Shown here: piece by piece, positions 1,957-36,362 of the stretch
Numbering within the stretch: position 1 is the stretch's first letter
Layout: every line of letters begins with the position of its first letter
Source of the DNA: an uncultured Gammaproteobacteria bacterium
Lineage (GTDB): Bacteria; Patescibacteriota; Microgenomatia; Levybacterales; GWA1-39-11
Assembly (NCBI GenBank): GCA_964519355.1
Contig: CAZFJW010000001.1
Span: 1 to 37,995, forward strand
Length of the DNA stretch: 37,995 bases
Direction: 5' to 3'
Program-made: the position numbers and the translations under genes
The notes under the pieces: generated by a model
What the model was told of the DNA's origin: nothing
Databases searched by the model: none
Seen by the model: only the letters and a program-made list of their open reading frames with translations

Positions 1957-1968
1957 AACTTCAACAGT

Positions 1969-8023: not shown

Positions 8024-8893
8024 ATGTGGGCTATTTATGCAATATATTTTACGATAATAAAGGCTGTTAACTTTTACATCTTCAAAAGACTAACTCGCGA
8101 TTTTAACCCCCTCACGCAGCTGGTTAATACCTTTCTTTTTTCAATACCTTTTGCCCTCATAATTCTGCTTGTCTTTTTCCAAATTCCAACAGTTACACCA
8201 ATATTCTATTTTTTCGTGGCCTGCTCTGCAGTACTTGACCTTGTAGCATTTTTCCTAACCTTCAAAGCTTTTAAAATGGAAGACATATCACTTCTTGCCC
8301 CGTTATCTGCATTCATCCCGGTATTTTCACTTATTTTTGCTGCTCTTTTTCTTCATGAATATCCAGGTGTTTTAAAAATTATGGGAATTCTCCTGGTAGT
8401 TGTGGGCACTTATGTTCTCAACCTTTCTGACACAAAACGAGGAATTTTTAAACCGCTTACCCGACTTTTTTCTTCCCGTGCACTTATTTTTTTCCTGATA
8501 GCCAATTTTATTTGGTCTATCACTCCGCTCTTTCAAAAAAAAGCAATTCTTCAGACAACTCCGGTTACACCTCTGTATGTATCATTTGTCGGATTTTGCA
8601 TTATTACCGTTCTTTCTTTTGTGATCGCATTTTTAAAAAGGGAGAAAATATTTATAAATACCAGAAAAAATTGGAAAATTCTCTCAATTCATGGATTCAT
8701 TGGAACGACAAGCCAAATGGCTGCCTTTACTGCTTTTGCTCTTGCTCCTCTTGCATATTCACTTTCTCTATTTAATATCTCAACACTTGTAACAATTGGG
8801 ATAGGCGCGGTATTCTTGAAAGAACACAAAACCCGTGACAGATTTTTTGGAGCACTTATTATGATCGCGGGGTCAATTCTGATTATTTTTTAA
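8024..8893 (+). CDS. EamA/DMT superfamily transporter
   Basis: 289 aa with about 10 TM helices in two similar halves, typical of EamA duplication. Confidence 0.75.
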   Translation: MWAIYAIYFTIIKAVNFYIFKRLTRDFNPLTQLVNTFLFSIPFALIILLVFFQIPTVTPIFYFFVACSAVLDLVAFFLTFKAFKMEDISLLAPLSAFIPVFSLIFAALFLHEYPGVLKIMGILLVVVGTYVLNLSDTKRGIFKPLTRLFSSRALIFFLIANFIWSITPLFQKKAILQTTPVTPLYVSFVGFCIITVLSFVIAFLKREKIFINTRKNWKILSIHGFIGTTSQMAAFTAFALAPLAYSLSLFNISTLVTIGIGAVFLKEHKTRDRFFGALIMIAGSILIIF

Positions 8894-10053
8894 GACTTTT
8901 TGCTTGGTCTCCTCTTTTGTGCCGCAATTGCTATTGCAGCACCAGTTCCAACAGTCAGACCTGCTGCTGCCAGAAATTTCTTACTTCTGTAAATTGGTTT
9001 TTTACCCCCCGCACTATCAACAAACATATCTTGCGCAATTGCACGATCTCCCCCAATAAAATACATTATTCCACGACAATGTTCTGCAACGAGCGCATCC
9101 ATGTCTCTACCCAAAACTGGCATAATCGTTAAATCTCCAAATTCCTGCTCAATTTCATCAGCCGTTCTAAGAAAAGCTCTCCTTGTGTTTGCTACAACCA
9201 AACTCTTTGGATCCTCAAAATCAGTACTTCTAATCAAATCCCTAATTGGCTGGTCGGCAGGTTTCATATAACGCTCAATATGAAATGGTCCGCTTGACGC
9301 TTTGGACCTGATGGTTCGAATTCCATACTGCTCATATTCATCTGCTACTCCTTTTTGGAATGACTCAATTTCTGCGTTGGATCCTCCAAGAATTACCTGA
9401 TCAGGCGCTACATCAAGTGCTAACTCGACATTAAATTCCTTACGATTTTCTCGCAAATGAGTGATAAGATCTACTTGCTCAGGTGAAGCCTCTTCTCCTC
9501 TTTTTTTTCTAACTCCGACAACAACAAGTCCCCCGCCAACTGCGTCTGATGCTTCCTGCATGATAAGTCCGCGCTCTTTATAAAATCTAATCATTTTTTC
9601 AAATGATTTGAATTCATATGGATTCCCAAAGCTGCCTGCTTCATATGCAGCAATTCCAAAAGCCGCGCTTTGTCCAATATTCACAGCAGAAAATCTTCTA
9701 AAACGCAGCGGATTGTCCTCAACCAGCATCGCTTTGCATGCAACACTGTAAGTAGGAATTAAAACCTGAGCGTTTTCTGTACGGTTTAGAAGGTCCTCAG
9801 GACCTTCGAAACTTATCTCTGCAACTTTAATCCCAGATGCGCGCTCTGCACTGGTATATATTTCTCTCACGATAGAACTTTGCTCCCAAAGATCTTTTCC
9901 CATTCCAACTTTTTGAAGACCATGTCCAGTGTACACTTCAATTCTGCCTGTAATTGGCCTATCTTCTTCAACTTGATAACGCACGCGCTCCCATGGCTGG
10001 GGCTGGTGTTGATGAAAAATATTTCGCTCGACCCAATTTCTTCGTTCACTCAT
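8890..10053 (-). CDS. Divergent FabD-like (malonyl-CoA:ACP transacylase fold) acyltransferase with C-terminal membrane anchor
   Basis: It aligns by eye to FabD motifs: GHGLQKVGMGKDL (GQGSQ..GM), GQSAAFG (GHSLGE), KERGLIMQEA (MRGKFMQEA) and SGPFHIERYMKPA (SHCALMKPA). The C-terminus FLAAAGLTVGTGAAIAIAAQKRR is a TM helix. The start is placed at Met13 because TAGAAT (10061-10066, minus strand) lies 7 nt upstream. Confidence 0.65.
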   Translation of the reverse strand: MSERRNWVERNIFHQHQPQPWERVRYQVEEDRPITGRIEVYTGHGLQKVGMGKDLWEQSSIVREIYTSAERASGIKVAEISFEGPEDLLNRTENAQVLIPTYSVACKAMLVEDNPLRFRRFSAVNIGQSAAFGIAAYEAGSFGNPYEFKSFEKMIRFYKERGLIMQEASDAVGGGLVVVGVRKKRGEEASPEQVDLITHLRENRKEFNVELALDVAPDQVILGGSNAEIESFQKGVADEYEQYGIRTIRSKASSGPFHIERYMKPADQPIRDLIRSTDFEDPKSLVVANTRRAFLRTADEIEQEFGDLTIMPVLGRDMDALVAEHCRGIMYFIGGDRAIAQDMFVDSAGGKKPIYRSKKFLAAAGLTVGTGAAIAIAAQKRRPSKKS

Positions 10054-10129
10054 AGACAGAATTCTACGAAAAAAATTCGTACATAGCAACTATCTGTCTC
10101 CAATTTTTGTAACCTAGAACACACAAATC

Positions 10130-10158
10130 TTGTAATCCAAATTACCAAGGTGTAGAAT
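10130..10158 (+). promoter_or_regulatory. Sigma70-like promoter TTGTAA-17-TAGAAT
   Basis: TTGTAA at 10130-10135 and TAGAAT at 10153-10158, with the crp-like ATG 9 nt downstream. The leader would be about 2-3 nt. Confidence 0.4.
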
Positions 10159-10167
10159 GGAAAAATT

Positions 10168-10857
10168 ATGACAACAGCTCTCTCAAAAAGATTAGAAAAG
10201 ATCTGGCAGGAGCCTGATTTTCTCTCCTTTTTTGAACAATACTCTTCACGCCCAGTTCTAAAAATTAAAAAAGGGTCACTCATTTTTTATGAAGGCGACA
10301 AACCAGGTAAAGTTTTTTTTGTAAAAAGCGGCTATGTCAAACTCTTCCACTCTTCAGAATCAGGCAAGGATGCAATCATTTACCTTTATGGACCAGGAAC
10401 AGTCCTTGGTCTTAGAGCACTTACTTCCGAAGATGAACTTTTGAGACATTCTGCCGAAACCCTCACTGACACACAAGTTATTACCCTCTCTCGTGAAGAA
10501 TACATCAAGGCCCTTGGAGAGCACCCTGAATATATAGTTGACCTTCTGCATTTATTCATTGAGAGACTTAATTACACCGAACGCAAACTCTCAGGTTTTA
10601 TCCTTACAGATGTCACAGCACGAGTTGCTAATTTTCTTCTCAATGTTGGAAAAAGATTTGGAGAAAAGACTCCGCAAGGAATTGTTATTCCAATTCCTCT
10701 CACCCATCAGCGAATTGCAGAATTTGTTGGATCTTTTAGAGAAACCGTTACTGGATCTGTTCAAAAACTCGAAAAGGCAAAATGTATTTCATATACAGGA
10801 AAAACACTCACAATAACAAATCTTAAAACGCTAGAAGGATTTATCCACGAACGATAG
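10168..10857 (+). CDS. Crp/Fnr family transcriptional regulator
   Basis: N-terminal cNMP-binding beta-barrel (FYEGDKPGKVFFVKSGYVKL) and a C-terminal HTH (THQRIAEFVGSFRETVTGSVQKLEK). Confidence 0.85.
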   Translation: MTTALSKRLEKIWQEPDFLSFFEQYSSRPVLKIKKGSLIFYEGDKPGKVFFVKSGYVKLFHSSESGKDAIIYLYGPGTVLGLRALTSEDELLRHSAETLTDTQVITLSREEYIKALGEHPEYIVDLLHLFIERLNYTERKLSGFILTDVTARVANFLLNVGKRFGEKTPQGIVIPIPLTHQRIAEFVGSFRETVTGSVQKLEKAKCISYTGKTLTITNLKTLEGFIHER

Positions 10858-10927
10858 TTCTCAACCACGCTCACCAAAAAGTAATCCACGCTACACATGC
10901 ATTGTGATCAATACTACTGAACCAAAA

Positions 10928-10948
10928 AACTCTATACTCTACACTCTA
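10928..10948 (+). repeat. Tandem heptamer repeat (N-ACTCTA) x3
   Basis: AACTCTA TACTCTA CACTCTA end 7 nt before ATG 10956. The reverse complement reads TAGAGT(G/A/T), related to the GTAGNNN heptads elsewhere in the window. Confidence 0.7.
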
Positions 10949-10955
10949 ACTAAAC

Positions 10956-11231
10956 ATGAAACAAACCACCCTCACACCGAGCCCAATCTTTGAATGGCCA
11001 TCTATTTCTCTCCATGACTTTACTGATGTCGAGATTGAATTCAGGCCAGCAAAGATTTTCTATAACGCATTCTTTTCGCTTTTTGTGGTTCCCGGAAAAA
11101 TTATTGATTCGTTCAAAAGTGTATTTCTTTCAGATCAAACAATCGATCCCCATCATGTCGAAATTGGAGAGAAAATTGAAAAAGAACTAATTACACTTTT
11201 TGACAAGGCCTATTCACTTGAGGAAGATTAA
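10956..11231 (+). CDS. Hypothetical protein (91 aa)
   Basis: ORF only; no family recognised. It overlaps the convergent gene by 4 nt. Confidence 0.45.
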   Translation: MKQTTLTPSPIFEWPSISLHDFTDVEIEFRPAKIFYNAFFSLFVVPGKIIDSFKSVFLSDQTIDPHHVEIGEKIEKELITLFDKAYSLEED

Positions 11232-14683: not shown

Positions 14684-15778
14684 ATGATTGATCAAAATAA
14701 AGAGAATGAAAAACTTATTGTAATCGCAGAAAAACTTATCTCTCTACGAAAAAAAGTAGGCCTCAATTCTTTTCTTGTGCCAGTTAATTTTGAGGAAGAA
14801 CGAGAGAAATTCTTTGACTCTCCGAATTATCAACCCCAGTTCAGGTATAACACTAAAGAAATACCTGAAAATATAGAGGATGAAATTGCCCAGCTTAAAA
14901 TTGACGTTGTTCATCTTCAAGTTCACCCCCAACTCAATTTACATCTCCAAAATTATATTGTAGATCTTGAGATGCTCCTTGGCACATTAAGATCCATTGG
15001 AACAGAAGCATTTACCGACTACGCATGTGATCTTTTCTCAGAGGAACTCGAGGACGCAACTCGAGAACATTTTCTTGATTCTGAATTTAGATTTGAAAAC
15101 GAAGAAAAAGGTGAACTTCACAACGCACAGCAAATAAAGGAAGCATTTGACAAAGAACTTGAGTTTTATAATTTAAAAAACTATTCAGTTCAGATCATTG
15201 CAAATGGTCCAATAATCGTTGCGGGGCCCACTAGAATTATTTTAGGAGAGGATATCAAAAGATACTCCAACAATGTACGAAGACTTATCATCCATGAAGT
15301 TGAATCCCATGCCATACAGGAATACAACATAGAAAACGCCCTTTCCCCCTTTCTTTCTCTTATCCCGTATGCCAAAATGCGGCTTTGGAGTGAAGGACTT
15401 GCAGTATTTAATGAAGTTCACACCAACACAATAACCCGCTCATCATATCTCAATTATACAAAGCGTTTTGAGGCTGTAAAAATGATGAATAATTCGTTCC
15501 GAGAAATATTTGACTATCTTAATGAATCACTCCACGAAAAAGAAGCATACAAGATTGCATTTAGAGTTAAAAGGGGTCTTTCAGATACGAGTCGTCCCGG
15601 AGGCTTTCCAAAAGATATCGCGTACGCTATCGGCTACTTAAAAGTAAAAAGATACGTCGAAAAAGGAAATTCAAGGTCATTTTTATACAGAATTCCAGAA
15701 CCTGAATTTGGCTCACTTCTCAAATCCCTGAATCTTCTTCCTGAAGATCAAATTGTACTCCCTAAGTTTATCGATTAA
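14684..15778 (+). CDS. DUF1704 / MATCAP-like metallocarboxypeptidase (QEGLA-motif family)
   Basis: HEVESH (HExxH) followed by WSEGLAVFNE, a variant of the family QEGLA motif. 364 aa. Confidence 0.7.
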   Translation: MIDQNKENEKLIVIAEKLISLRKKVGLNSFLVPVNFEEEREKFFDSPNYQPQFRYNTKEIPENIEDEIAQLKIDVVHLQVHPQLNLHLQNYIVDLEMLLGTLRSIGTEAFTDYACDLFSEELEDATREHFLDSEFRFENEEKGELHNAQQIKEAFDKELEFYNLKNYSVQIIANGPIIVAGPTRIILGEDIKRYSNNVRRLIIHEVESHAIQEYNIENALSPFLSLIPYAKMRLWSEGLAVFNEVHTNTITRSSYLNYTKRFEAVKMMNNSFREIFDYLNESLHEKEAYKIAFRVKRGLSDTSRPGGFPKDIAYAIGYLKVKRYVEKGNSRSFLYRIPEPEFGSLLKSLNLLPEDQIVLPKFID

Positions 15779-20629: not shown

Positions 20630-20718
20630 GTAGTGTGTAGAAAGTAGTATGTACTATGAGCACGCAAGAAGGACCGTCGTACTGCTATTGCATGCTTATG
20701 CTGCATGATGCAGTACTA
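20630..20718 (+). repeat. ORF-less miniature copy A of the heptad-repeat inverted element
   Basis: Left arm is GTAGTGT GTAGAAA GTAGTAT GTACTAT (20630-20657). Right arm is ATGCTGC ATGATGC AGTACTA (to 20718), resembling the right arm at 30934-30961. It fills the rseP-tsf intergenic space and overlaps the tsf stop codon. Confidence 0.6.
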
Positions 20719-21174
20719 TTCTCTTCCAAGTTCAAGTCTGGTTATTCTTCCAAGAACAATATTCTCACCGAGCTTGGCGATTGTTTCTTTTAAGAGCATT
20801 TCGATCGTCTTTGATGAATCCCTTATATATTCTTGTTTCAATAGTTCCTCAGCATCTTTCGGATTCATTGAAGCCACCTGCATTGCAACTTCATGTGCTA
20901 AAGTTTTAAATTCATCAGTTCTTGCAACAAAATCAGTCTCACACAATATTTCAACTAGTGATGCAACTCTTCCACCATGAACATAGCTTTCAATAAGCCC
21001 AGCATTCGTTGCTCTATCTCCCTTTTTTGCTGCTCTCTCAAATCCCTTTTTCTTCAAAATTTCTTTTGCCTGCTTTAAATCTCCCTTTGCTTCTTCCAAT
21101 GCAGCACGGCAATCAGCAACACCGGCTTGGGTTTCTTCTCTGAGTTGTTTGATAAATGATACGTCAATTGCCAT
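20716..21174 (-). CDS. tsf: Elongation factor Ts (short form, 152 aa)
   Basis: N-terminal UBA-like domain (IKQLREETQAGVADCRAALEE) and part of the core. It sits directly downstream of rpsB. Confidence 0.9.
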   Translation of the reverse strand: MAIDVSFIKQLREETQAGVADCRAALEEAKGDLKQAKEILKKKGFERAAKKGDRATNAGLIESYVHGGRVASLVEILCETDFVARTDEFKTLAHEVAMQVASMNPKDAEELLKQEYIRDSSKTIEMLLKETIAKLGENIVLGRITRLELGRE

Positions 21175-21185: not shown

Positions 21186-22067
21186 TTATGAACTTTTAGC
21201 AGGTTTTGTCTCTTTTTTAACTGTTGTCTTTTTTGGCTCTTTGGATTTTGCTATCTTTGCAGCAGCTTTTTCTGCTTCCTTTTCAACTCTTTTATTCTCT
21301 GCATCAACGGCTGCTTTTTCTGCTTTTACACTATCCTCTTGTGCTTTTTGTTTGTTCTTTTCACCCTGAATCTGTCCCTCTTCAAAAGCCTCAACAAGAT
21401 AAGTCGTGATCAGTTCAATTGCACCAACTGCATCATCATTTGAAGGAATTGCCCAGTCAACGTCTCGTGGATCAGAGTTAGTATCGACAATTCCTACAGT
21501 ATCGAGTCCCATTTTATGAGCCTCATCGACCGCTGTTCTCTCATGGTGAGTACCGATAATAACAAGTGCTGATGGAAGACCAGGAAGATCTGCAATTCCC
21601 TCATAAAAATTCAATAATTTTTCCCGTTCTCGCCCAAAAAGAAGCACTTCTCTTTTTGTATATCCTTTTTGTTTTTCAGGAACATTGATAAATTCAGTAA
21701 GATCTTTTAGTTTTTTGAAATTCTTTGAAACTTCCTGGTAATTTGTGAGCGTTCCACCGATCCATCGCGCATTGACATAATAAATATTTCGAACACCCTT
21801 GCCCCATGCTTTTGCAACTGCATCTTTTACAACATTTTGTGCCTGTCTTTTGGTTCCAACAACTACAATTGAACCACCTTCACTTGCAATATTTGATAAA
21901 TGCTTACCAGCCTCCTGTAGTCCTTCGAGGGTTTTTTCGAGATTGATAATGTGAATATTGTCACGTTCTTCAAAAATAAAACTGGCGGCTCGTGGATTAG
22001 CACGATTTACCTGATGTCCGAAATGACAACCAGCTTCCAATAATTCTTCTAATGTTACTTCTTTCAT
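21186..22067 (-). CDS. rpsB: 30S ribosomal protein S2 with K/E/A-rich C-terminal tail
   Basis: LLEAGCHFGHQ and other S2 motifs. The last ~55 aa are Lys/Glu/Ala-rich. Confidence 0.95.
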   Translation of the reverse strand: MKEVTLEELLEAGCHFGHQVNRANPRAASFIFEERDNIHIINLEKTLEGLQEAGKHLSNIASEGGSIVVVGTKRQAQNVVKDAVAKAWGKGVRNIYYVNARWIGGTLTNYQEVSKNFKKLKDLTEFINVPEKQKGYTKREVLLFGREREKLLNFYEGIADLPGLPSALVIIGTHHERTAVDEAHKMGLDTVGIVDTNSDPRDVDWAIPSNDDAVGAIELITTYLVEAFEEGQIQGEKNKQKAQEDSVKAEKAAVDAENKRVEKEAEKAAAKIAKSKEPKKTTVKKETKPAKSS

Positions 22068-22242: not shown

Positions 22243-22887
22243 ATGGACGAATCAAAATCTTCTCGGAATAAAAGCCTACTTCTTCTGTCATGTGGAATAC
22301 TCATACTCTTGTTGTCTGCTGTCTCTGTTCTTGTTATCTCCAAGTTATCTAATAATAATTCTTCAACAGCAAAAAATGAACAATCAGGCAAAAAAACGGC
22401 AAAAAATAACTCTAGTTCTTCTCTTTCCACAGATGAGTCAGGCCCAACTATCTCAAACCAGCATGTCTCTCTTAATTTCTCACAAAAATTTATTGATGCA
22501 TCAAAGAATAATGAAAAAGTAAATGTGGATATCATCCTAGACACTGAATCCGCAAAAACAGACGGAGCCATTGTGGAAGTTGTCTATGATCCAGAATCGA
22601 TTTCGGATGTAGATCTCTTCCCTGCCTTTGATACTGATTCTCTCTATGGGGAACAATCCGATGTAACAACCCTTTCCCATAGCCCAGAAGAAGGAAAATT
22701 CGTACTTGGGATCTCAACTTCAGCAGAGCAAGAAGGAGCCGGTAGAATCGCTACTCTATCTTTCAAACCACTCAAATCATCTTCAAAAGATAAAACCCAA
22801 ATTACATTTTCCACCCTTTCCGAAGGCTATTCAGGGTCTGAAAAATACCCAGCCGACCCGGGCTCTCTTGAAGTAAAGATTAAGTAA
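22243..22887 (+). CDS. Membrane-anchored cohesin-like domain protein 1
   Basis: N-terminal TM helix, an N/S/K-rich linker, then a beta domain with VEVVYDPESISDV...GAGRIATLSFKP, a pattern typical of cohesin modules. It is a paralog of 27142-27750. Confidence 0.55.
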   Translation: MDESKSSRNKSLLLLSCGILILLLSAVSVLVISKLSNNNSSTAKNEQSGKKTAKNNSSSSLSTDESGPTISNQHVSLNFSQKFIDASKNNEKVNVDIILDTESAKTDGAIVEVVYDPESISDVDLFPAFDTDSLYGEQSDVTTLSHSPEEGKFVLGISTSAEQEGAGRIATLSFKPLKSSSKDKTQITFSTLSEGYSGSEKYPADPGSLEVKIK

Positions 22888-22944
22888 ATTCCAAACACGC
22901 GTTAAATTCTTCTTTTTCTCAATTCGTAGTCTGAGCGTGAAAAA

Positions 22945-23069
22945 TCAAGTCTTGAACGTTAAGAACTGTAAGGCGTAGTCCGGAGTTTTAGTGAAAGAGG
23001 CAGATTTTGAACGCATCAGGCAAGACTTGAGAAGAGTTTTGTATACTTTTGCGGAAAAAGTATACAAAA
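22945..23069. other. Structured segment inside a 525-nt non-coding gap
   Basis: A 10-bp long-range complement pairs TCAAGTCTTG (22945-22954) with CAAGACTTGA (23021-23030). A perfect 14-bp hairpin follows: TTTTGTATACTTTT (23037-23050), loop GCGGA, AAAAGTATACAAAA (23056-23069). Confidence 0.5.
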
Positions 23070-23375
23070 ATTAATTACCTCGTATTTCTTCTTGCTCTGT
23101 GATTTACTGTTCCAATACCGAACACACATATATCAATTTTTGCAATTCAACAAAGGACAATTACACTTTTGCAAATGAGTGCATCAGGGGATTCCTCACA
23201 AACTTGTTGAGGAGGGGGTAAAATCACCCGATAAATGAATGAGCAAAATGCGTCCGATTTGACTTGCAAGGAGCTTTCGTTCTTTCTCGGAAGAAAAAAC
23301 AGTAAATAATACTCATAAGTACGTCTTGACAAAATTCTGCGTACTTTTAAGAATTACAAATATTTTTTGTACTTC

Positions 23376-23405
23376 TTGCTATTCTAAAACTTCTTATACT
23401 ATAGT
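23376..23405 (+). promoter_or_regulatory. Sigma70-like promoter TTGCTA-18-TATAGT
   Basis: The -10 box ends 7 nt before ATG 23413, giving a leaderless configuration. Confidence 0.4.
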
Positions 23406-23412
23406 AAAAGAT

Positions 23413-23649
23413 ATGATCGGCGGTCGAGGCTCTAGCTATATTTATTTAGTTCTTCTTGCTATTATTGGAGGTTTTCTTATGGCTGGCGGGTCCCGCATGG
23501 AAAATGCGAATTATCTTACAAAATATGATAATTCGAAGCTAACTCCGACACCTGGGGTCGGTGCATCAATCGCAACTCCGACACCTGGTGTAGTCGGAAT
23601 TCCCGGTGCAGCAACTGCCACACCCACACCAACACCCACAGGACCATAA
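23413..23649 (+). CDS. Small anchored PT-repeat protein (78 aa)
   Basis: MIGGRGSSYIYLVLLAIIGGFLMAGG anchor followed by TPTPG repeats, including a 15-nt perfect DNA repeat at 23541-23555 and 23574-23588. The track start at 23326 is a TTG that coincides with a TTGACA -35-like box. Confidence 0.55.
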   Translation: MIGGRGSSYIYLVLLAIIGGFLMAGGSRMENANYLTKYDNSKLTPTPGVGASIATPTPGVVGIPGAATATPTPTPTGP

Positions 23650-23690
23650 AAATTATAGCGCCTTAGAAAAATAAGATCATGAATATAGAA

Positions 23691-24233
23691 CTAAGCTGCT
23701 TGCGGTAATGGAGTAAAAGTGGAAAGTGCATCAGTAATTTTTGCAATTTGACTGTCATAGCGTGCAACGGCCAGCTCTGCTCCACCTCTAGTAGTGTTGC
23801 CTAGCGCTCTTGTTGACTCTTGAATTTTTTTATCGATCCACTTTTGCGCTGCCTCATCGGCGACTTGAGCACGAACATCCATACCCTGCTGAATATCATT
23901 CTTTAAATCTTTATAATTAGCATCATCTGCGTACTCCTGAGGGGATTCAGCCTTATCTTTGTCACGCAGACGAAACTTTTCAAGGTTATCTTTTTCTTTT
24001 TGGTACTCAGCAATTACACCTGCAGCATTTCCATCTTCAGCTTCTTTTCTTATTTGTTGAAGACGTGCAATCTCTGCCTCAAATCCTCCGCTTGGCATTA
24101 TTACTGCGTGCCCTAATTCTGAATGCTTAAGACCTGTTTGGGCATTTGTAATTTTTGCGTCTATAAGGAAAAATTTATCACCTGAAGTAACAGGCGCTTC
24201 ACCTGTCGACTGAACTTGAGCTTCTAAATCCAT
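23691..24233 (-). CDS. Hypothetical soluble, charged helical protein (180 aa)
   Basis: ORF on the opposite strand inside the surface island. It has no signal sequence and no recognised family. Confidence 0.55.
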   Translation of the reverse strand: MDLEAQVQSTGEAPVTSGDKFFLIDAKITNAQTGLKHSELGHAVIMPSGGFEAEIARLQQIRKEAEDGNAAGVIAEYQKEKDNLEKFRLRDKDKAESPQEYADDANYKDLKNDIQQGMDVRAQVADEAAQKWIDKKIQESTRALGNTTRGGAELAVARYDSQIAKITDALSTFTPLPQAA

Positions 24234-24307
24234 AATTTGAAATAGTTAATAATATATATTGTTATAAGTCAATATAGTCTCTAAAACGATTTATCCAGAT
24301 TTACTTG

Positions 24308-24336
24308 TTGAATAACAAGGACTCTGATACTATAAA
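24308..24336 (+). promoter_or_regulatory. Sigma70-like promoter TTGAAT-17-TATAAA
   Basis: TTGAAT at 24308-24313 and TATAAA at 24331-24336. The predicted leader to ATG 24397 is about 54 nt. Confidence 0.35.
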
Positions 24337-24396
24337 AATATTATTACAAGCCAAAATATCAAACATTATCTTCTCTCACAAAAGGGAGACGCTACA

Positions 24397-24987
24397 ATGA
24401 GTCTCCTGCTTCTTATCATCTTGGTATCGGGAGTCTTTCTCGTAGGTGGGGTTACACCAAAAATGCATGACGACACGCTCGACATGAAGACAACCGGAAC
24501 TGTACAAGGCGTCCAATCCGGAAGTACTGGATCATCTTTTGCCGGAGCGCCCGGCACGAGCAACGGCTCCAAAAAGTCTCTACAGATGAAACAACTTATT
24601 CTAACCACTACAACTCCAACCCCTATTGGCCCTGCTCCTACAAAAACCCCCACACCCACAACGACCAGTCCATCTTCTGAATGGAAAATTACATATAAAT
24701 TTGTCGAGTGCAGAGAAGATGCATCTGCTGGGAATTTAGAACTAACTGGATCCACTTCTGGATACACCATTACTGAAGTAAAATATTCTGGAGAACCCGA
24801 TTGGACATTTGCAGATAGTGAAAAATTTGATGGAGCCAAAACCAAAAATGCAATCATTCTGTTCCCTCAGGAAAAACCATTTATTTGGAGAGTGACGCTT
24901 TTTTCTGGTGGAACATTTACCACCAGAGGCAGCGGTGGAACTTTAAGAGCAACATATGACGGCGCACTTTTTACGAAATGCACGTAG
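24397..24987 (+). CDS. Anchored surface protein: shared N-terminal module, PT linker and unknown beta domain
   Basis: MSLLLLIILVSGVFLVGGVTP...DDTLD anchor, a TTTTPTPIGPAPTKTPTPTTTSP linker, and a C-terminal ~110-aa domain with 2 Cys. AAGGGAG lies 8 nt upstream of the ATG. Confidence 0.7.
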   Translation: MSLLLLIILVSGVFLVGGVTPKMHDDTLDMKTTGTVQGVQSGSTGSSFAGAPGTSNGSKKSLQMKQLILTTTTPTPIGPAPTKTPTPTTTSPSSEWKITYKFVECREDASAGNLELTGSTSGYTITEVKYSGEPDWTFADSEKFDGAKTKNAIILFPQEKPFIWRVTLFSGGTFTTRGSGGTLRATYDGALFTKCT

Positions 24988-25034
24988 TTGATTTAAAATA
25001 TTTTTTGATATATACCTAATACTAGTCATACCAT

Positions 25035-27140
25035 ATGCGTAAAAATATACTTCTCATTTGTGTTATTTTTTTAGCACTATTTACTATTAAAATTAGTGCA
25101 GGACCTACAGAAGCTATTTCTTCATCAACTAATAAGACTCTCCTCGCTCAGTCTGCAACATGCAATGAATCAACATGCTATGGAGTAAAAGTATGTACTG
25201 ATAGAGGCTGTAAAAAGAGAACTGGATACAACTGTACTGGTGTTGATGGAATAAATGACAATGATCGATGCGCCTCAGGAATCTGCATTAATGGTGAGTG
25301 TGTCGATTATAAAAATGAACCACCAGATGGCTACTGCGGAGAACCTGAGGACTGTACAACGGGAATATGTATTAAGAACAAATGCCGATCGGGCCTTCTT
25401 GCACCATATGAGGACTGTGACAATAACTCACAGTGCCTGTCAGGAGTGTGTGTAGATGAATGTAAGCCAACCAAACTTCCGCAAGACTCAAAGTGTGATG
25501 CGAATGATAACGCAGATTGTCTTTCAGGCCAATGTTCTAGATGTGAAGTAAATGGATGTAAGGGAAATTGGACCTGTCAAGGCCGGGATCCGACACCTAT
25601 TCCTACAACCGTTCCCCCAAATTGCGGTACCGAAACCTGTGTCGGGACAGAAATTTGTCTGCAAGTAAATGGATCCCCCCCGCTTCAATGTTTTGCGCGC
25701 AATTCAAGAATAAATGGGTACACTTGTAAAGGCCAGTATGGCACCAGAGAACATGATGTGTGCAGTTATCCTGCACCATGGTGTAACGAAAATTTTAGAT
25801 GCGGACTCACAAATTCCCCTGCTGAGACAGATCCCACAGCAATTCCGGAACCAACTGAAGAACCAGGAGCGGCAACACCTACTAGAACTCCTACTACTCA
25901 ACCTACTGACACTACATCCTGCGAAAATCCTGCAACATGGAGTCCGGGAACTAGCTATTCATGCCAGTTATCAGGATGTCCTGAAGGTGGATCTTTCTAT
26001 GATGGACCAGATAGCGGCTGCCCTGCCTCCAGGCCAACCTGCTGCAAGACTATCATTATTCCCCCTCCTGGTGCTCCAGAAGTCCTAGACTATGAGAGAA
26101 GTTGTACAGATGGTCAAATTTCTTACAAATTTAATTTCACTCCAGGCGAAGATGCAACCTATCATAAATTACAATATGTCGGAGTCGCCAAAGGCGACAC
26201 TACGACTGTACCTGTCGATCAGTACAATAACTATACCTCTGGCATGATTATCCCTCCATCAGGAGGAAATGGATTTGCACCCGATATTCAGGTTAATTAC
26301 GACATTCTCGCATGCAACTCTGCGGGATGTACTCCTGATCCTATGCACTGGTGGTCAATTGGAGACACAGGAAACGCATGCACAGCAGGAGGAGCAACAC
26401 CGACTGGTCCTTGTAGTACTCACGGCGGAGTTAAGGCTGGAACAACTGCAGATGGAGTCTGTGATAGAAAAGTGTTTAACGATACTAATGCCAAAAAAAC
26501 AGTCGCAGAAGGAAATCCTTACTACGGCAAAACATATGAACTCAGATACACGTGTAACGATCCAGGAACATACGATTATATAAATCCAGATACGACCACA
26601 TGCAGCTCCAAAGTATGGTTTGATCCGCCCGCAGGAGGAGGATCAACACCCGGCGGCACAAAGACGTGCTACAAAGACGCCGATAATGACGGCTATGGAT
26701 CAGCAACTGGTGGAACACAGGCCAATCAAACCTCATGCACCGCAGGCTGGTCAGAAAGCATGAGCGATTGCGATGACACCAATGCGTCCGCCAATCCTGG
26801 TCAAAGTGGTGACTTCTATCATCCCCTGGCAAATGGCACTTTTGACTATAACTGTAACGGACAAAATGATAAAAAATATGCAACTCATGGATTTGGCTCA
26901 CTGCCAAAAGAAACATGCCTAGCTGATATGCCGTCTGGGACTGTCGGATTTACAGATGACATGCAATGCGGAACTTCGGGCACATTCAGACTTTGCTATA
27001 AATTTAAAAATACCGCCTGTGGTGGCACTTCAGATTCAGACGCAGTCTCTGATACTATCGGCAAGCCCTGTCCCGCTGGTGCTGCCGGAAGCGGATGGGC
27101 ACTTGTAGACCTGGCAAGCGTCCCGCAGAATTGTAAGTAA
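25035..27140 (+). CDS. Secreted cysteine-rich multidomain protein (701 aa, about 55 Cys)
   Basis: Sec signal peptide. Four C-x-[ST]-G-x-C-x2-4-C modules occupy aa ~66-175, with PT linkers between regions. CYKDADNDGYG...DCDDTNASANPG...DYNCNG at aa 545-612 resembles the putative metal-binding (MopE-type) motif. Confidence 0.8.
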   Translation: MRKNILLICVIFLALFTIKISAGPTEAISSSTNKTLLAQSATCNESTCYGVKVCTDRGCKKRTGYNCTGVDGINDNDRCASGICINGECVDYKNEPPDGYCGEPEDCTTGICIKNKCRSGLLAPYEDCDNNSQCLSGVCVDECKPTKLPQDSKCDANDNADCLSGQCSRCEVNGCKGNWTCQGRDPTPIPTTVPPNCGTETCVGTEICLQVNGSPPLQCFARNSRINGYTCKGQYGTREHDVCSYPAPWCNENFRCGLTNSPAETDPTAIPEPTEEPGAATPTRTPTTQPTDTTSCENPATWSPGTSYSCQLSGCPEGGSFYDGPDSGCPASRPTCCKTIIIPPPGAPEVLDYERSCTDGQISYKFNFTPGEDATYHKLQYVGVAKGDTTTVPVDQYNNYTSGMIIPPSGGNGFAPDIQVNYDILACNSAGCTPDPMHWWSIGDTGNACTAGGATPTGPCSTHGGVKAGTTADGVCDRKVFNDTNAKKTVAEGNPYYGKTYELRYTCNDPGTYDYINPDTTTCSSKVWFDPPAGGGSTPGGTKTCYKDADNDGYGSATGGTQANQTSCTAGWSESMSDCDDTNASANPGQSGDFYHPLANGTFDYNCNGQNDKKYATHGFGSLPKETCLADMPSGTVGFTDDMQCGTSGTFRLCYKFKNTACGGTSDSDAVSDTIGKPCPAGAAGSGWALVDLASVPQNCK

Positions 27141-27141
27141 T

Positions 27142-27750
27142 ATGGAAAAAATTAAAAGTATTATTGTTGGAATTAAAATGTCAAAAAAGAAGTTACTGAT
27201 TGTAATTTCAGTCACAATTATCATTCTTCTCTTGCTTATTGCAGCTCTATTAGGAGTTCGGTCAAAAAATACAAAAACGAAAAACCAAGTACAAGTCCAG
27301 CCTATTGAGACCAAAAAATATTACGCCTCATTAAAGTTTGACAAAGAAACAATTTCACAGAATGAGTCACCGGTTTCAATAACTCTTGATATGGGAGCAA
27401 ATTCTGTAAAAAGCGTTTCATTTACAGTTGAATACGACCCGACACTCCTGACAGTGGACATCGAGCAGGAACTTGACAGCACCTCCGCCCTTTCTTATTC
27501 TCTTGTTCCAGCGGGTAAAATTGCATCACCCAGCACAGCCAAAAAAGGAACAATTCAATATATTCTATCTTTAAAAAATGAGGCTGTAGAACAAAATGGA
27601 AAGGGCAAAATTGCAAAGTTTATATTTAAAACAAAACCTGAATTCACAGGCACTGCTGTTGTAAAGATTGCAGATGTCAAAATTACCTCAGACAAACTTG
27701 GCATAACCGAAGAATTTCTTCCACAAACCAACTCTCTTATAATTCAATAA
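27142..27750 (+). CDS. Membrane-anchored cohesin-like domain protein 2
   Basis: TM anchor, a K/N-rich linker, then SVSFTVEYDPTLLTV...GKGKIAKFIFKTKP. It starts 1 nt after the previous stop; an alternative start is Met13 at 27178. Confidence 0.55.
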   Translation: MEKIKSIIVGIKMSKKKLLIVISVTIIILLLLIAALLGVRSKNTKTKNQVQVQPIETKKYYASLKFDKETISQNESPVSITLDMGANSVKSVSFTVEYDPTLLTVDIEQELDSTSALSYSLVPAGKIASPSTAKKGTIQYILSLKNEAVEQNGKGKIAKFIFKTKPEFTGTAVVKIADVKITSDKLGITEEFLPQTNSLIIQ

Positions 27751-27773
27751 GATATGGTGTGACGAGTGACTAT

Positions 27774-27803
27774 TTGACACATGCATTGATATTCTCATAA
27801 GAT
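27774..27803 (+). promoter_or_regulatory. Sigma70-like promoter TTGACA-18-TAAGAT (leaderless configuration)
   Basis: The -10 box ends 6 nt before ATG 27810. Confidence 0.5.
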
Positions 27804-27809
27804 ATCTGT

Positions 27810-28667
27810 ATGAAGAAAAAATCCGCAAGAAAAGTAACACGCAGAGAGCAGAATAAATTCCTCCACTCCGTACGCCTCTTTAGAGGAGACGCAATGGTGA
27901 CATTACTACTTGCAATAGTTGTCATTTCAGCAGTTTTTTTCGTGGGAGGCGCACTTCCCCAGCAATCCCGTGACACTCAAGATCTTTCAAATGAAGGCGT
28001 TATTGACGAAGACTCGCTCTCCTCTTCAACCAACGGCAATCAACTGCAGCTTAAGACCTTAAAATTCAAAAAATGTTCATCAATTGCCGCAGTCAGCATG
28101 ATGCTCGATCGCTCAGGATCTATGGGCAATGATGGAAAAATCACCAAACTCAAATCAGCAACCCTGTCATTTGCATCAAATTTTGCAGACGACTCGGTTA
28201 TTGGAATTCAGTCTTTTGACTCAAATGACATACGTGAAGACGTTCCTATATCCTACTATAAAGATGTAAAAGATTTGGTCGTAACAAAAGTTAATGCACT
28301 CACCCCAGGCGACAAAACCCCCACGTATCGAGCCCTGCAATTCTCTCGCGATATTTTAATACCCGCAATACCAAAGTTCAGTGACCGAACTTTTAATTTT
28401 ATCTTCCTCTCAGACGGCCTCCCCGTTCCGCCCCAGACAGAAGACCCACGAGGATACTCACCCAATCCTGCTGATGAAATTAAGGCTCTTGGAGTAACTG
28501 TGTACACTATTGGAATCTTCGGACCTGCAGATGCTGTTGCAGGAGCTGAGCTGCTAAAAAGCATTGCATCATCTCCTGATAATTATTTTGCTACGCCAAC
28601 GGGTGACGATTTATCAAGTATTTATGCTGCAATTGGAACAAAAATTTGCAGCAAGGCAACAAAGTAG
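27810..28667 (+). CDS. Anchored von Willebrand factor A domain protein 1
   Basis: Basic leader ...LFRG then DAMVTLLLAIVVISAVFFVGG. MIDAS residues are DRSGSMG, GDKTPT and FLSDG. Confidence 0.8.
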   Translation: MKKKSARKVTRREQNKFLHSVRLFRGDAMVTLLLAIVVISAVFFVGGALPQQSRDTQDLSNEGVIDEDSLSSSTNGNQLQLKTLKFKKCSSIAAVSMMLDRSGSMGNDGKITKLKSATLSFASNFADDSVIGIQSFDSNDIREDVPISYYKDVKDLVVTKVNALTPGDKTPTYRALQFSRDILIPAIPKFSDRTFNFIFLSDGLPVPPQTEDPRGYSPNPADEIKALGVTVYTIGIFGPADAVAGAELLKSIASSPDNYFATPTGDDLSSIYAAIGTKICSKATK

Positions 28668-28762
28668 TTTGTATAGTGTAGTATGTGGAATGGAGAATGT
28701 ATGATGCGCAATCTTTTTCAGATCAAGCATAATTCCTAATACATAATTCATTGTACAAAACC
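28664..28762 (+). repeat. ORF-less miniature copy B of the heptad-repeat inverted element
   Basis: Seven in-phase heptads GTAGTTT GTATAGT GTAGTAT GTGGAAT GGAGAAT GTATGAT GCGCAAT span 28664-28712, with G1 and T7 invariant. Right arm is CATAATT CCTAATA CATAATT CATTGTA CAAAACC (28728-28762). The left arm overlaps the vWA-1 stop codon. Confidence 0.7.
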
Positions 28763-28769
28763 CCAAATA

Positions 28770-28799
28770 TTGACAACCCCGACACATACTATCTAGAAT
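28770..28799 (+). promoter_or_regulatory. Sigma70-like promoter TTGACA-18-TAGAAT (leaderless configuration)
   Basis: The -10 box ends 5 nt before ATG 28805. Confidence 0.5.
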
Positions 28800-28804
28800 G
28801 ATGT

Positions 28805-29791
28805 ATGCCCGCTAAATCTTCTCGTATTCGGAGAAAAACAAAAACTGTCAAGAAAAAAACATCAGTAAAAAAACCCGCTTCATCGCTTTGGTTTTTTCCA
28901 AATTCTCTTAAAGTTCTTAAGGGTGATGCCTCAATCTTTATATTATTTGGAATAATACTTATCGGCGGACTCTTTATGGCTGGTGGCTTTTTCCCTAGAG
29001 TCTCAACTGACACACTTAACACTGACGCTGGAGAATCACAAATTGATCCAGATTCTCTCCCAAAGGGCGACTCAAAAGAAGCACTGCAGCTCAAGACCCT
29101 CAAATTTAAAAGCTGTACCCAGGTCTCCGCAGTTGAATTTTTACTGGATAATTCAGGATCTATGGGAGGGTCAGGATTTGATCCTGCCAAAATGACCAAC
29201 CTCAAAGCGGGTGTTACAACGTTTTCAGAAAAATTATCTGACACATCGGTTATAGGACTGAGAACTTTTTCTGACTATACAACCCTAGACGTTCCTTTCG
29301 GATATTACAAAGACAATAAGTCCTCCTTTGCTACAGCAATTGCTGGAATGACTCCTGATGGATCTACGCATCAAAAGTCAGCTTTTGAGGCAGCCAAAAC
29401 AGATCTCGAAGGTGCAGTCACAAAATATCCAAAGTACGATTTTAATCTCATATTCTTTTCTGATGGAATTCCAGAAACTGCAGCGGGAAATAGAACTTGT
29501 ACAGGCACCGTGTGTGATCCATCAAATCCTGCAGGATGTAGATGCATGGCACCATCCCAAGACCCAAGAGCAGTTGCAGAAGAAATCAAAGCAATTAAAA
29601 ACTCATCAGGCAGCAATATAAGAATATTCTCAATTTTGCTGTACGATCCAGTTCGTGATAGTTTTGCCGAAACCGAATTTAAGGCTCTTATGAAAAGTGT
29701 TGCAACGGATTCTTCAACATACTTTGAAACAACCGATCCAGATGATTTAAAGAGTCTTTTTGATTCTGTTATCAAAAAAGTTTGTGGATAA
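28805..29791 (+). CDS. Anchored von Willebrand factor A domain protein 2
   Basis: A 40-aa basic leader ...LKVLKG then DASIFILFGIILIGGLFMAGG. MIDAS residues are DNSGSMG, PDGST and FFSDG. It has a Cys-rich insert CTGTVCDPSNPAGCRC and is a tandem paralog of 27810-28667. Confidence 0.8.
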   Translation: MPAKSSRIRRKTKTVKKKTSVKKPASSLWFFPNSLKVLKGDASIFILFGIILIGGLFMAGGFFPRVSTDTLNTDAGESQIDPDSLPKGDSKEALQLKTLKFKSCTQVSAVEFLLDNSGSMGGSGFDPAKMTNLKAGVTTFSEKLSDTSVIGLRTFSDYTTLDVPFGYYKDNKSSFATAIAGMTPDGSTHQKSAFEAAKTDLEGAVTKYPKYDFNLIFFSDGIPETAAGNRTCTGTVCDPSNPAGCRCMAPSQDPRAVAEEIKAIKNSSGSNIRIFSILLYDPVRDSFAETEFKALMKSVATDSSTYFETTDPDDLKSLFDSVIKKVCG

Positions 29792-30550: not shown

Positions 30551-30585
30551 GCAGGATGTAGCATGTAGAACGCAGTATGCAAAAA
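30551..30585 (+). repeat. Left heptad-repeat arm flanking the four-helix-bundle gene
   Basis: GCAGGAT GTAGCAT GTAGAAC GCAGTAT GCAAAAA. The ATG at 30577-30579 lies inside the fourth heptad. Confidence 0.7.
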
Positions 30586-30945
30586 ATCCAGTCATTTACA
30601 GACTTAAACGCCTGGAAAGAAGCGCACGTCCTCGTTCTCAATATCTACAAAGAAACGAAAAAATTTCCCGATGATGAAAAATTTGGACTTACCAACCAGA
30701 TGCGAAGATCTGCCGTCTCAATAACTTCAAATATTGCAGAAGGTTTCTCAAGAAAGGGAACGAAGGAAAAAATCCAATATTGTTATTTGGCTCTTGGGTC
30801 TCTAGCCGAACTACAAAATCAACTTGTAATTTCAAGAGATATTGGTTATATTTCTAATACAGATTTTCAATTACTCGCAGAGAAATCAATTATAGTTAGC
30901 AAATTAATTAATGGGCTTATTAAATCAAAATCGCATACAACATAA
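30577..30945 (+). CDS. Four-helix-bundle protein (23S rRNA intervening-sequence protein / Avd family)
   Basis: FTDLNAWKEAH...FPDDEKFGLTNQMRRSAVSITSNIAEG...LGSLAELQNQL is characteristic of this family. Confidence 0.85.
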   Translation: MQKIQSFTDLNAWKEAHVLVLNIYKETKKFPDDEKFGLTNQMRRSAVSITSNIAEGFSRKGTKEKIQYCYLALGSLAELQNQLVISRDIGYISNTDFQLLAEKSIIVSKLINGLIKSKSHTT

Positions 30946-34706: not shown

Positions 34707-36362
34707 CTATTTCTTTTTTAATCCTTCAAGAAGTTTTTTCTCTTTTTCTTTAATTTTCTCAGCAGTTCCTCGTCTGGCAAAATGATAGTCATTCATATCT
34801 ACTTGCAAAAATGATCCAATCAAAGGATACACTTTTTTTACAAGATCAGCCTTTTTTTGTTCTACTTTTCTATAATCTGGATGACCCTGAGGAATAGTTC
34901 TCAGCTCTATTTCCCAGAAGAGACTCCTCAAATTCTGTCTTTGCACAAAACGAACTCTATGCGACATTGTAACAACATATTGTGCCAGAACCGGATCTTT
35001 TTTTTCAATTTTATAGAATAGTTCCTCTGCCTGATCAAGTGCTGATTCATACATTTTCTGGAATCTTGTTCCTTCGAATTCAGGCGGAAGTGTCCTCCCA
35101 TGCACAACAGTAAACAGTTCTTTTTGCTGTGTAAGAATCCTATGACGATGCAAATCGCGCCAAGATCCGATACTCATACAAATATCAAAAGCAACAGTTG
35201 CATGCTCAAAAGCGCGAGGAACTTTATACCAGCGAGCGCGCCTTTTTGAAAGAACTTTCTCAAGTAATTTCTTTTTTTGTGTATCACTCATTTTTTTAAC
35301 ATGACCAACTATCTCATCAAATCCCTCATGCGCTGCAGGGAAAATAAGTCCCGCAAGAATTGCATCCTCACCATTCTTGTCATAAGAAATAAGTCTGACA
35401 TCCTCTTTTGATCCGGCACTCTTTTTTGGAATAAATTCTTTTGGGATTTCTTTTTGCGAATTAAGATAATCCCGATATTCTATTGCAGCTTCCCCATGTG
35501 CTCGTCGTAAAAAGGAAGGAATTATTTTCTCAAGTTCCACAAGCCCAGCTTCAGCAGCCCATCGAATTTCTCCAAGTCTGTGATCCAGAGATCTTGCAAC
35601 TAGATATTCAAATGCCTGACCATTCCCAAAAAATGCAACTTGGGACAGCGTTGCCATTGGCAAAAGCCCGCGAACTGTATCATATGCTTTTGCTTTTAAA
35701 ACAAGAACATTTTCTTCAGGAAAATGAGATTTTAATTCTTCAAAATATTCCCCCACCATTTTTGTATATGTATCAAAAAGGTTGTCCATTACCCTTTTGT
35801 ATTCCTTCTCAAGACCTATTTTCTCCAGATCCGGATCTATGTAATACCTATATTTTCCTTTTATTTTTGATGAGTAATCTACATATCTCGTTGATTTCTC
35901 AATTGGAGCAAGTCCGAGCCTCATATCCTCAAAGTGTTTTATTGCAATTTGTGAAAGCGAAGAATATATAAGATGTGCTCCCGCCATTTGTGCAATCGAA
36001 TCATCTCCGTATTGAGCAAGCCACTTCACATAAAATTCCCTCCCTTTGGGATTGGAGAAAATAAGCTCTACTGGATACCTATGAAAAAAGGAGATAAGTC
36101 TTTTTAATGATGTTCCATACCTGCTTTTTTCCTCAATAAACGGGCCGATAAATTCTCTTAAAAATATTGCTCTCAGGTCATCTTTTGCACGTGAAGTCCT
36201 AGAACATAATGCGCCAATTACTTCAGGTGGAAGAAATGAGACTGCAAATGCGTTTTTATCACTGTTTGTAAAGAATGGCTCGATGAGAAATTTTTCTTTT
36301 TTTGAAAACTCAGGCCTATCAAAAAGTGGAGAGAAAGAATTAAGAGTATTATTTTTTTTCAT
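34707..36362 (-). CDS. thyX: Long (551-aa) ThyX-like FAD-dependent thymidylate synthase
   Basis: ThyX-type RHR motif (WRDLHRHRILTQQ) in the C-terminal half and a second ThyX-like half at the N-terminus. It sits in an operon with dut and tmk. Confidence 0.65.
   Translation of the reverse strand: MKKNNTLNSFSPLFDRPEFSKKEKFLIEPFFTNSDKNAFAVSFLPPEVIGALCSRTSRAKDDLRAIFLREFIGPFIEEKSRYGTSLKRLISFFHRYPVELIFSNPKGREFYVKWLAQYGDDSIAQMAGAHLIYSSLSQIAIKHFEDMRLGLAPIEKSTRYVDYSSKIKGKYRYYIDPDLEKIGLEKEYKRVMDNLFDTYTKMVGEYFEELKSHFPEENVLVLKAKAYDTVRGLLPMATLSQVAFFGNGQAFEYLVARSLDHRLGEIRWAAEAGLVELEKIIPSFLRRAHGEAAIEYRDYLNSQKEIPKEFIPKKSAGSKEDVRLISYDKNGEDAILAGLIFPAAHEGFDEIVGHVKKMSDTQKKKLLEKVLSKRRARWYKVPRAFEHATVAFDICMSIGSWRDLHRHRILTQQKELFTVVHGRTLPPEFEGTRFQKMYESALDQAEELFYKIEKKDPVLAQYVVTMSHRVRFVQRQNLRSLFWEIELRTIPQGHPDYRKVEQKKADLVKKVYPLIGSFLQVDMNDYHFARRGTAEKIKEKEKKLLEGLKKK

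Follow-up and report, generated by a model that had tools for sequence, protein, structure and literature searches.

A gene island of an uncultured Patescibacteriota lineage that probably encodes a cell-surface display or adhesion module with an exchangeable specificity cassette

Eight consecutive open reading frames (ORFs), lettered A to H, lie at positions 22243-29791 of a 37,995-nucleotide (nt) stretch of contig CAZFJW010000001.1 from an uncultured bacterium of the Patescibacteriota; this whole stretch, referred to below as the window, was analysed. All eight were found at the coordinates given in an initial annotation, made from the sequence alone, which described an island of surface proteins with no enzymatic partner. 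Most of its inventory was borne out. A hydropathy scan located a single N-terminal hydrophobic stretch in A, B, D, E, F, G and H (the seven proteins said to carry a signal peptide or anchor) and none in C, which is encoded on the minus strand and had been described as soluble. Runs rich in proline and threonine (PT), described as linkers, were located in B, D and E; the gap between A and B does measure 525 nt; and neither Pfam nor NCBIfam gives an enzyme, transporter or ATPase in the island, the NCBIfam search of its proteins yielding no family match at all. None of the eight proteins ends in a hydrophobic segment of the sortase type. The flanking genes are housekeeping genes (frr, rseP, tsf and rpsB on one side; uppS, a gene resembling those for 23S rRNA intervening-sequence proteins (IVP), glyA, thyX, dut and tmk on the other), and none of the window's other ORFs, when scanned with Pfam, proved to be a pilus, secretion, sortase or ATPase gene; the window also contains no tRNA and no Rfam family.

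The island ends with two tandem genes, G (27810-28667, plus strand) and H (28805-29791, plus strand), encoding von Willebrand factor A (vWA) domains (Pfam families PF00092/PF13519): G matches VWA at 1.3e-10 (42.2 bits against a cut-off of 23.8) and H matches VWA_2 at 8.5e-12 (46.1 bits against a cut-off of 27). The two are clear paralogues (34% identity, E=1e-44), each with an N-terminal module, described below, ahead of the vWA domain; H has in addition a long basic leader and a cysteine-rich insert. The first motif of the metal-ion-dependent adhesion site (MIDAS) begins at nt 28107 in G (DRSGSMG) and at nt 29147 in H (DNSGSMG), and G contains the full set (DRSGS, T, D). Across the 19 sequences of the H family, MIDAS residues D115, T188 and D220 are invariant and S117 and S119 at least 90% conserved (alignment A1); judged by sequence, the motif is complete in both proteins, and the metal site is predicted. 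A pair of cysteines, Cys104 and Cys327, which brackets the vWA domain of the H family and is at least 90% conserved in the same 19 members, is read as an extracellular disulfide.

H was modelled with AlphaFold2 (AF2) from 12 sequences; the model consists of a short transmembrane (TM) helix (residues 42-58), a disordered stretch (residues 59-102) and a vWA core with a Rossmann-like alpha/beta fold and a predicted local distance difference test (pLDDT) score above 90. Foldseek returned 398 PDB matches to this model at E<=1e-3, the top 50 of which are all vWA-fold proteins, led by SpaC, PilB (a Streptococcus sanguinis minor pilin, the second match) and Mfa5, then ANTXR2 and integrin I domains; a PDB sequence-profile search with the H family agrees (Mfa5, integrin I domains, TRAP). 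Pfam, motif positions and the model of H thus concur on the two tandem vWA paralogues with intact MIDAS motifs that had been proposed, and the fold is a real vWA fold whose closest structures are adhesins (pilus-tip proteins, a toxin receptor, integrin I domains). SpaC (Lactobacillus rhamnosus, 6M48), Mfa5 (Porphyromonas gingivalis, 6TNJ) and the pilus adhesins of group B Streptococcus (3TXA) share the extracellular MIDAS vWA fold with G and H; unlike G and H, which have an N-terminal TM anchor, they are sortase-linked (LPXTG) or type V lipoprotein pilins. Since basic leaders precede the TM helix and the Cys104/Cys327 pair brackets the domain, the vWA domains are placed outside the cytoplasm, G and H being N-in/C-out membrane-tethered vWA proteins.

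D, G and H, and more loosely B, carry a homologous N-terminal module of 65-80 amino acids (aa), laid out as [KR]-G, a hydrophobic helix with Gly at +14/+21 and Pro at +24, a linker and an 'LQLK' strand. The N-termini of the H family consist of a variable basic leader, a near-invariant Gly and a hydrophobic helix ending GG-x-x-P, followed by a linker of about 30 residues and a strand with the consensus LQLKTLKF; in D, QKGDAT is followed by a TM helix, a linker, an LQMKQL strand and a PT linker. Identity among the modules of D, G and H is 33-44% (33% for D against H), with G3, G24 and P27 invariant (alignment A7), and the A7 hidden Markov model (HMM) is matched by G at 1e-27 and by D, its upstream codons included, at E=3e-24. 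Searches with the seven N-termini found no Pfam family even at E<=10 (N_methyl, TadE and Tad are absent), and the module profile has no match at E<=10 among PDB sequences, pilins included.

Searched against 1.84 billion cluster representatives, the module profile (67 positions) retrieved 57 proteins at E<=1e-3, 25 of them at E<=1e-10. All are true members except P0087, a 1735-aa eukaryote-like protein of the nucleotide-binding, leucine-rich-repeat type (NLR/LRR), which was rejected as a repeat-driven false positive. Gly directly precedes the helix in 52 of the 56 true members, and within these 52 a Lys or Arg occupies position -2 in 40, Gly position +14 in 26 and position +21 in 40, and Pro position +24 in 31, being the first Pro of the module in 29; an acidic residue (Glu/Asp) occurs at +3 to +6 in only four. 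Four types of cargo follow the module: vWA domains (in most members), Ig-like heads of the D type, Pro-rich tails as in B, and a domain of about 200 aa that ends GFT.VEWGG. This last domain, which is unannotated and has no Pfam match ('...YLYP...GL...E..EFL.YW...ISP.PDT...GFT.VEWGG'), follows the module in L030 (4673-5986), P0125, P0127, P0128 and P0131; it also ends a 721-aa protein encoded before the vWA pair of L009 and L010 (L010 2108-4273, C-terminal part).

The D family is laid out in the same way. Some D alleles have a leader ('...KGDAT') before MSLLLL, and the D orthologue of L018 reads 'RSSRGDATISV...'. In the window, L004, L007 and L022, 'SQKGDAT' lies in frame directly upstream of the D ATG at 24397 (24325-24399), with no ATG, GTG or TTG start before it: either translation begins at a rare codon (ATT or ATA), or D no longer has its leader. 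The sequence AAGGGAGA upstream of this ATG could also act as a Shine-Dalgarno sequence.

In our judgement the module is probably a plain signal-anchor. An alternative that we consider unlikely, though the strongest of those weighed here, is that it constitutes a class III (prepilin-type) signal. On that view a prepilin peptidase whose gene lies elsewhere would cleave B, D, G and H behind the conserved Gly, and the four would act as minor or modular pilins, at the tip of a type IV pilus or in a short bindosome-like structure, with the vWA and Ig heads as displayed adhesins and A and F as platform proteins. In 40 of the 52 members a hydrophobic stretch some 22 residues long begins right behind [KR]-G (site variants KG|F, KG|QIE and RG|AVEF), which is consistent with such a signal, and Gly +14 and Pro +24 recall the G14/P22 of type IVa pilins; yet the scarcity of acidic residues at +3 to +6 departs from the G|F-x-x-x-E motif, and the profile searches found neither a Pfam pilin signal nor a PDB pilin. 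Archaeal class III signals, which combine [KR]-[GA] with a hydrophobic domain, often lack Glu5 and occur on diverse non-pilin cargo (PMC4371748, PMC2910488), much as the module occurs on several unrelated domains, and signal peptides that depart from the canonical form are likewise found in PilX1 and PilX2, adhesin pilins of Saccharibacteria (PMC11623550). The ranking of the vWA-carrying PilB as the second structural match to H points the same way.

The likeness extends to overall architecture. S. sanguinis PilB (PDB 7B7P) and PilX1/PilX2, like the island proteins, have a basic leader ending in Gly, a hydrophobic segment and a C-terminal adhesion module, which in PilB is a vWA domain with MIDAS that the vWA domain of H matches structurally; and the island, like loci for modular type IV pilins, encodes several such proteins side by side. 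Unlike modular pilins, the island proteins have no pilin alpha1-beta module, Glu5 or N_methyl motif, in place of a pilin fold they have a long stalk, disordered or of the PT type (in the AF2 models, a short helix and then a disordered linker), and no pilus machinery genes adjoin them: PilB/C/D/M/N/O, Tad and prepilin peptidase genes were absent from the 38 kb and from the related loci, the loci being all that was covered. In this clade, moreover, translation of D may begin at the ATG downstream of the putative cleavage site. Archaeal class III proteins, including the sugar-binding proteins of the Sulfolobus bindosome, are thought to form a surface assembly, and their signal layout is like that of the module; the bindosome, however, is archaeal and has the BasEF/PibD machinery, whereas no machinery or peptidase is seen at the island, and any processing there would be putative. 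It is a comparably tentative idea that the module belongs to an undescribed bacterial display or assembly system whose logic is akin to that of type IV filaments, in which a Glu5-less class III-like signal on unrelated adhesion domains (vWA, Ig-like, Pro-rich stalks, the 200-aa domain) would direct co-assembly with cohesin-like platform proteins into a short bindosome-like surface structure, the D head and E N-terminus forming its swapped end.

D (24397-24987, plus strand) divides into the N-terminal module (24379-24681, including the in-frame upstream QKGDAT) and a head (24682-24987). The head, the C-terminal ~100 residues, is modelled by AF2 as a seven-strand beta-sandwich (pLDDT >90 for residues 97-188) bracketed by Cys105 and Cys195; residues 1-91 are at low confidence. 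Structure searches of PDB and BFVD returned only generic Fn3/Ig-like neighbours, and a more specific fold family for the head was rejected. On this model, D is a predicted tethered Ig/Fn3-like head on a Pro/Thr stalk.

E (25035-27140, plus strand) is a secreted cysteine-rich protein without an anchor. It contains exactly 55 cysteines, matching the approximate count made earlier. Its N-terminal half (25035-25904) comprises a Sec signal peptide, four C-x-[ST]-G-x-C repeats and PT linkers; its C-terminal half (25905-27140) is conserved, Cys-rich and without an anchor signal. Neither the whole protein nor any of five pieces has a sequence relative in Pfam, NCBIfam or PDB. PF11617, which the initial annotation had raised as a possible family, is matched only below threshold and only at the C-terminus of E (E=0.03), the sole hint of a family.

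D and E are also where strains differ. A second haplotype is present in contigs from other samples (L004, L005, L006, L022), and the window haplotype recurs in three further assemblies (L001-L003), so that each is found in at least three independent assemblies. Compared at the nucleotide level with L004 or L022, the window is 100% identical in G, H, the G-H spacer and the IVP-like gene, and 99.9% identical in uppS. Upstream of G, identity declines from 96% in F to 82% in the C-terminal half of E; the N-terminal half of E and the D head have no nucleotide match; and identity then rises through the N-module of D (75%) to C (94%), B (90%), the A-B gap (97-99%) and A (97%). In P0002/L004 the N-terminal ~290 aa of E are replaced by a non-homologous, cysteine-poor module. 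The sequences beside this break are themselves diverged: synonymous sites of the D N-module are saturated (proportion of synonymous differences, pS=0.86) at 84% amino-acid identity, and the C-terminal half of E shows 82% amino-acid identity, with synonymous divergence (dS) of ~1.2 and a nonsynonymous-to-synonymous ratio (dN/dS) of 0.10. L007 is the reverse mosaic, close to the window in the D head (96%) and E N-terminus (88%) and at ~80% in F and the E C-terminus. In pairwise comparisons of nine D alleles, the N-modules are on average 81% identical and the heads 32%.

The variable segment is a clearly delimited cassette of ~1.4 kb, wholly different between co-occurring strains: the D head and the N-terminal half of E are exchanged as one unit between otherwise identical strains. 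The D and E variants are old alleles, or imports from a diverged lineage, in an otherwise clonal background. Such a segment swap between strains is as expected for a partner-recognition device. Hypervariation driven by a diversity-generating retroelement was considered in view of the nearby bAvd/IVP-like gene and rejected: there is no reverse transcriptase (no RVT match) and there are no template/variable (TR/VR) repeats. No direct repeat in the window exceeds 41 nt and none involves D or E. Contigs from many samples (L001-L013, L021-L024) stop inside E or the A-B spacer, as would be expected if D/E haplotypes that co-exist in a sample interrupt its assembly; samples with both haplotypes include ERZ27258485 and SRR14932689.

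A (22243-22887, plus strand; TM segment at about residues 9-38) and F (27142-27750, plus strand, beginning 1 nt after E) are bitopic membrane proteins with a putative cohesin-like beta-sandwich. The two had been presented as cohesin-like paralogues, and of this claim the relationship stands better than the domain name. Both contain the motif YDP...G-x-G-[RK]-IA-x-[LF]-x-FK and they are distant paralogues (29% identity over 108 aa, E=3e-4); F exceeds the cut-off for the Pfam Cohesin family PF00963 (25.9 bits against 24.1) whereas A, at 18.5 bits, falls below it. Five of six members of the A/F family touch PF00963 at E<0.1, and the best PDB matches of the family profile are the SdbA cohesins, at a non-significant E=0.57, which leaves the cohesin call marginal. 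Matches to the A/F-family HMM occur in L018, L027 and L030 and, weakly, in L031; the L030 orthologue of A is 31% identical (E=3.7e-21).

These scores are what a cellulosome-like scaffold, with A and F anchoring dockerin-bearing proteins on the surface, would have to build on, and we think it very improbable. A and F resemble cohesins in their weak profile matches and in being membrane anchored, as some anchoring scaffoldins are; they differ from cellulosomal cohesins in consisting of a single small domain that scores at or below threshold, with no enzymes in the window and no dockerin (Dockerin_1, PF00404) in any island or window protein, only the window having been scanned. The one calcium-loop-like motif, in E, is the sub-threshold PF11617 match.

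The remaining features lie between A and D. B (23413-23649, plus strand) encodes 78 aa from its ATG, or 107 aa if a TTG at 23326 is used. In it R-G is followed by a hydrophobic helix that terminates in GG and by a tail rich in Pro and Thr, and there is no globular domain. B does not reach E<=0.01 against the A7 module HMM and appears, from its sequence, to be a degenerate short member of the N-module class; clearer B-like genes, with a module and a Pro-rich tail, adjoin a vWA gene in L018, L020, L028 and L030. C (23691-24233, minus strand) encodes an acidic, soluble protein of 180 aa with no TM stretch and no significant Pfam or NCBIfam family, 90% identical at the amino-acid level in L004 and L007. 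It is confined to the close clade (it is absent from L018, L030 and L031) and is probably not a surface component. The 525-nt A-B spacer (22888-23412) is non-coding, as two 1-nt indels separate it from its counterpart in L022; at 97-99% identity it is more conserved than the adjacent coding sequence, B being only 90% identical between haplotypes. It contains a perfect 14-bp hairpin near 23036-23070 and a promoter-like TTGACA-17-AAGAAT site upstream of B (23326-23354), and its RNA folding z-score on the plus strand is -2.7. The spacer may be a regulatory RNA or leader; a known non-coding RNA was rejected, as there is no Rfam match even at E<=1 and the folding z-score is only modest.

The island is rare. 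Among 5.8 billion proteins, H has 24 homologous clusters, D nine and E three, and one GTDB species representative and five metagenome contigs of the Joint Genome Institute (JGI) carry a relative of H. The GTDB representative with a close H homologue (73%) is L014 (CAZBEA010000065.1), a metagenome-assembled genome from a binchicken co-assembly. Because the lineage is rare, the sample for synteny is small, and gene calls were confirmed with HMMs from family alignments. L018 (H 73%) encodes, in order and with protein lengths in aa, a D-like protein (226), a Cys-rich protein (599), a cohesin-like protein (233), two vWA proteins (286 and 325) and a B-like ORF, followed by uppS, the IVP-like gene and glyA. 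L030 (H 48%) has D-like (165), Cys-rich (591, with 50 Cys), cohesin-like (222), vWA (317) and B-like (141) genes, then one for a module-bearing 437-aa protein, and glyA. In L031 (H 41%) a B-like (172), a TM-beta (206, the weak A/F match), a Cys-rich (607, with 58 Cys) and a D-like (183; A3 HMM 2e-23) gene lie in this order on one strand; two vWA genes (328 and 281), rpsB and tsf follow. The D-like, Cys-rich, cohesin-like, vWA and B-like set thus stays together beside rpsB/glyA down to about 41% identity in H. The initial annotation had named homologues that are scattered and never co-localised as a result that would refute it, and the relatives show the opposite.

Beyond that distance the set shrinks. 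L009 and L010 (H 37%) have a vWA pair at the rpsB-glyA position, preceded by the unrelated 721-aa anchored protein, and P0027 contigs (H 31%) have a single vWA gene at the same position. The vWA genes are the old, positionally conserved core, and D, E and the cohesin-like genes are a conserved accessory set within the sub-lineage. In L020 (38% identity; 7186-11186) a module-vWA gene and a B-like Pro-rich gene adjoin a T4SS_pilin (PF18895) gene and one for a 704-aa multi-TM protein with a weak TrbL/VirB6 match, which hints at a link of this adhesin family to a conjugation-type type IV secretion system (T4SS) in some lineages.

Tandem TM-vWA proteins also occur in the Bacteroides aerotolerance operon, as BatA and BatB. 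Despite the likeness of two adjacent membrane-anchored vWA paralogues, and of a large protein beside the vWA pair of L009/L010 that, judged by eye, could be a beta-propeller (Pfam finds none in the L010 protein), we place almost no weight on an intracellular or stress-related vWA system (Bat aerotolerance, MoxR-vWA conflict) or on a defence or prophage remnant: MoxR AAA+ and DUF58 genes are absent from the window and related loci, G and H have no accompanying BatC or BatD gene and no family-level (NCBIfam) match, the PT stalks and the Cys pairs of disulfide type indicate an extracellular position, and the flanks are positionally conserved housekeeping genes. Bat/MoxR systems were accordingly rejected for want of partner genes, a defence system for want of a PADLOC match, and a phage or prophage origin on finding no meaningful PHROG match, no match when E was compared by tblastn with 50,697 phage records, and no relative of H in IMG/VR.

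We consider it probable that the island is a lineage-restricted cell-surface display or adhesion module with an exchangeable specificity cassette. The predicted extracytoplasmic location of its proteins is based on the basic leaders, the Cys104/Cys327 pair, the 55 cysteines of E and the PT linkers. The surface-assembly or adhesion system proposed in the initial annotation is upheld to the extent that the proteins are extracytoplasmic binding modules without an enzyme and the vWA domains adhesin-like; a cohesin-dockerin mechanism is left without a basis, because no dockerin-like partner was found in the window. The locus type does appear to be undescribed, as had been suggested: neither the locus nor the module has a description in Pfam, NCBIfam, PADLOC, PHROGs or the literature searched on pili, adhesins and T4SS of Patescibacteria. 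Its parts are familiar (vWA adhesins, Ig-like heads, PT stalks); undescribed are the module that several of the proteins share, the set of genes as such and the cassette that is swapped.

As a surface display or adhesion module, the island might work as follows. The shared N-module would be the signal-anchor and stalk common to these proteins, setting all cargo at one height and perhaps in one complex. The invariant vWA pair, possibly with A and F, would form a constant platform that keeps E, which has no anchor, at the surface, for instance through an acidic residue coordinated at a MIDAS. The variable D head and the N-terminal module of E would determine specificity by contacting a target outside the cell, be it a partner cell, a host surface or matrix. 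The old divergent alleles may be maintained by diversifying or frequency-dependent selection, through partner range or through phage or predator recognition, and could move by homologous recombination through the conserved flanks.

Several points weigh against this interpretation. The cohesin assignment of A and F, made by sequence comparison, is marginal, and retention of E by the vWA or cohesin-like proteins is something that we purely infer. In the D head dN/dS is 0.42, not >1, so that positive selection is not demonstrated, only allele replacement and extreme divergence. More distant relatives do without the accessory genes, and the eight genes therefore need not be one obligate machine. 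Lastly, the soluble C on the opposite strand and the conserved A-B spacer are left without an explanation.

Other features of the window and its relatives stand apart from the island. The IVP-like gene (30577-30945), between uppS and glyA, encodes a 122-aa 23S-rRNA-IVP/bAvd-like four-helix protein and is kept in L004, L011 and L018. In the EF-Ts/S2 region (20716-21174 and 21186-22067), EF-Ts has only 152 aa (151 aa in relatives) and ribosomal protein S2 a C-terminal tail of ~50 aa rich in Lys, Ala and Glu, unusual housekeeping traits that might be useful for lineage placement. The ThyX (PF02511) ORF at 34707-36362 encodes 551 aa, roughly double what is usual for ThyX (its L018 counterpart has 557 aa), and may be a tandem or fused ThyX. 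Upstream of the rpsB block lies a conserved MATCAP-like (PF08014) gene (14684-15778), unrelated to the island, which in L009 adjoins two RimK-type ligase genes (1035-3917).

Most uncultured bacteria with small genomes are assumed to live attached to partners, and to our knowledge almost nothing is known, outside the type IV pili of Saccharibacteria, about what recognises the partner. The locus is a compact and concrete candidate for partner recognition in such bacteria. It adds a new family of N-terminal modules and two more domain families that Pfam lacks; and its combination of a constant vWA platform, 100% identical between strains, with an exchangeable cassette makes strain-specific partner range, or evasion of phages or predators, testable.

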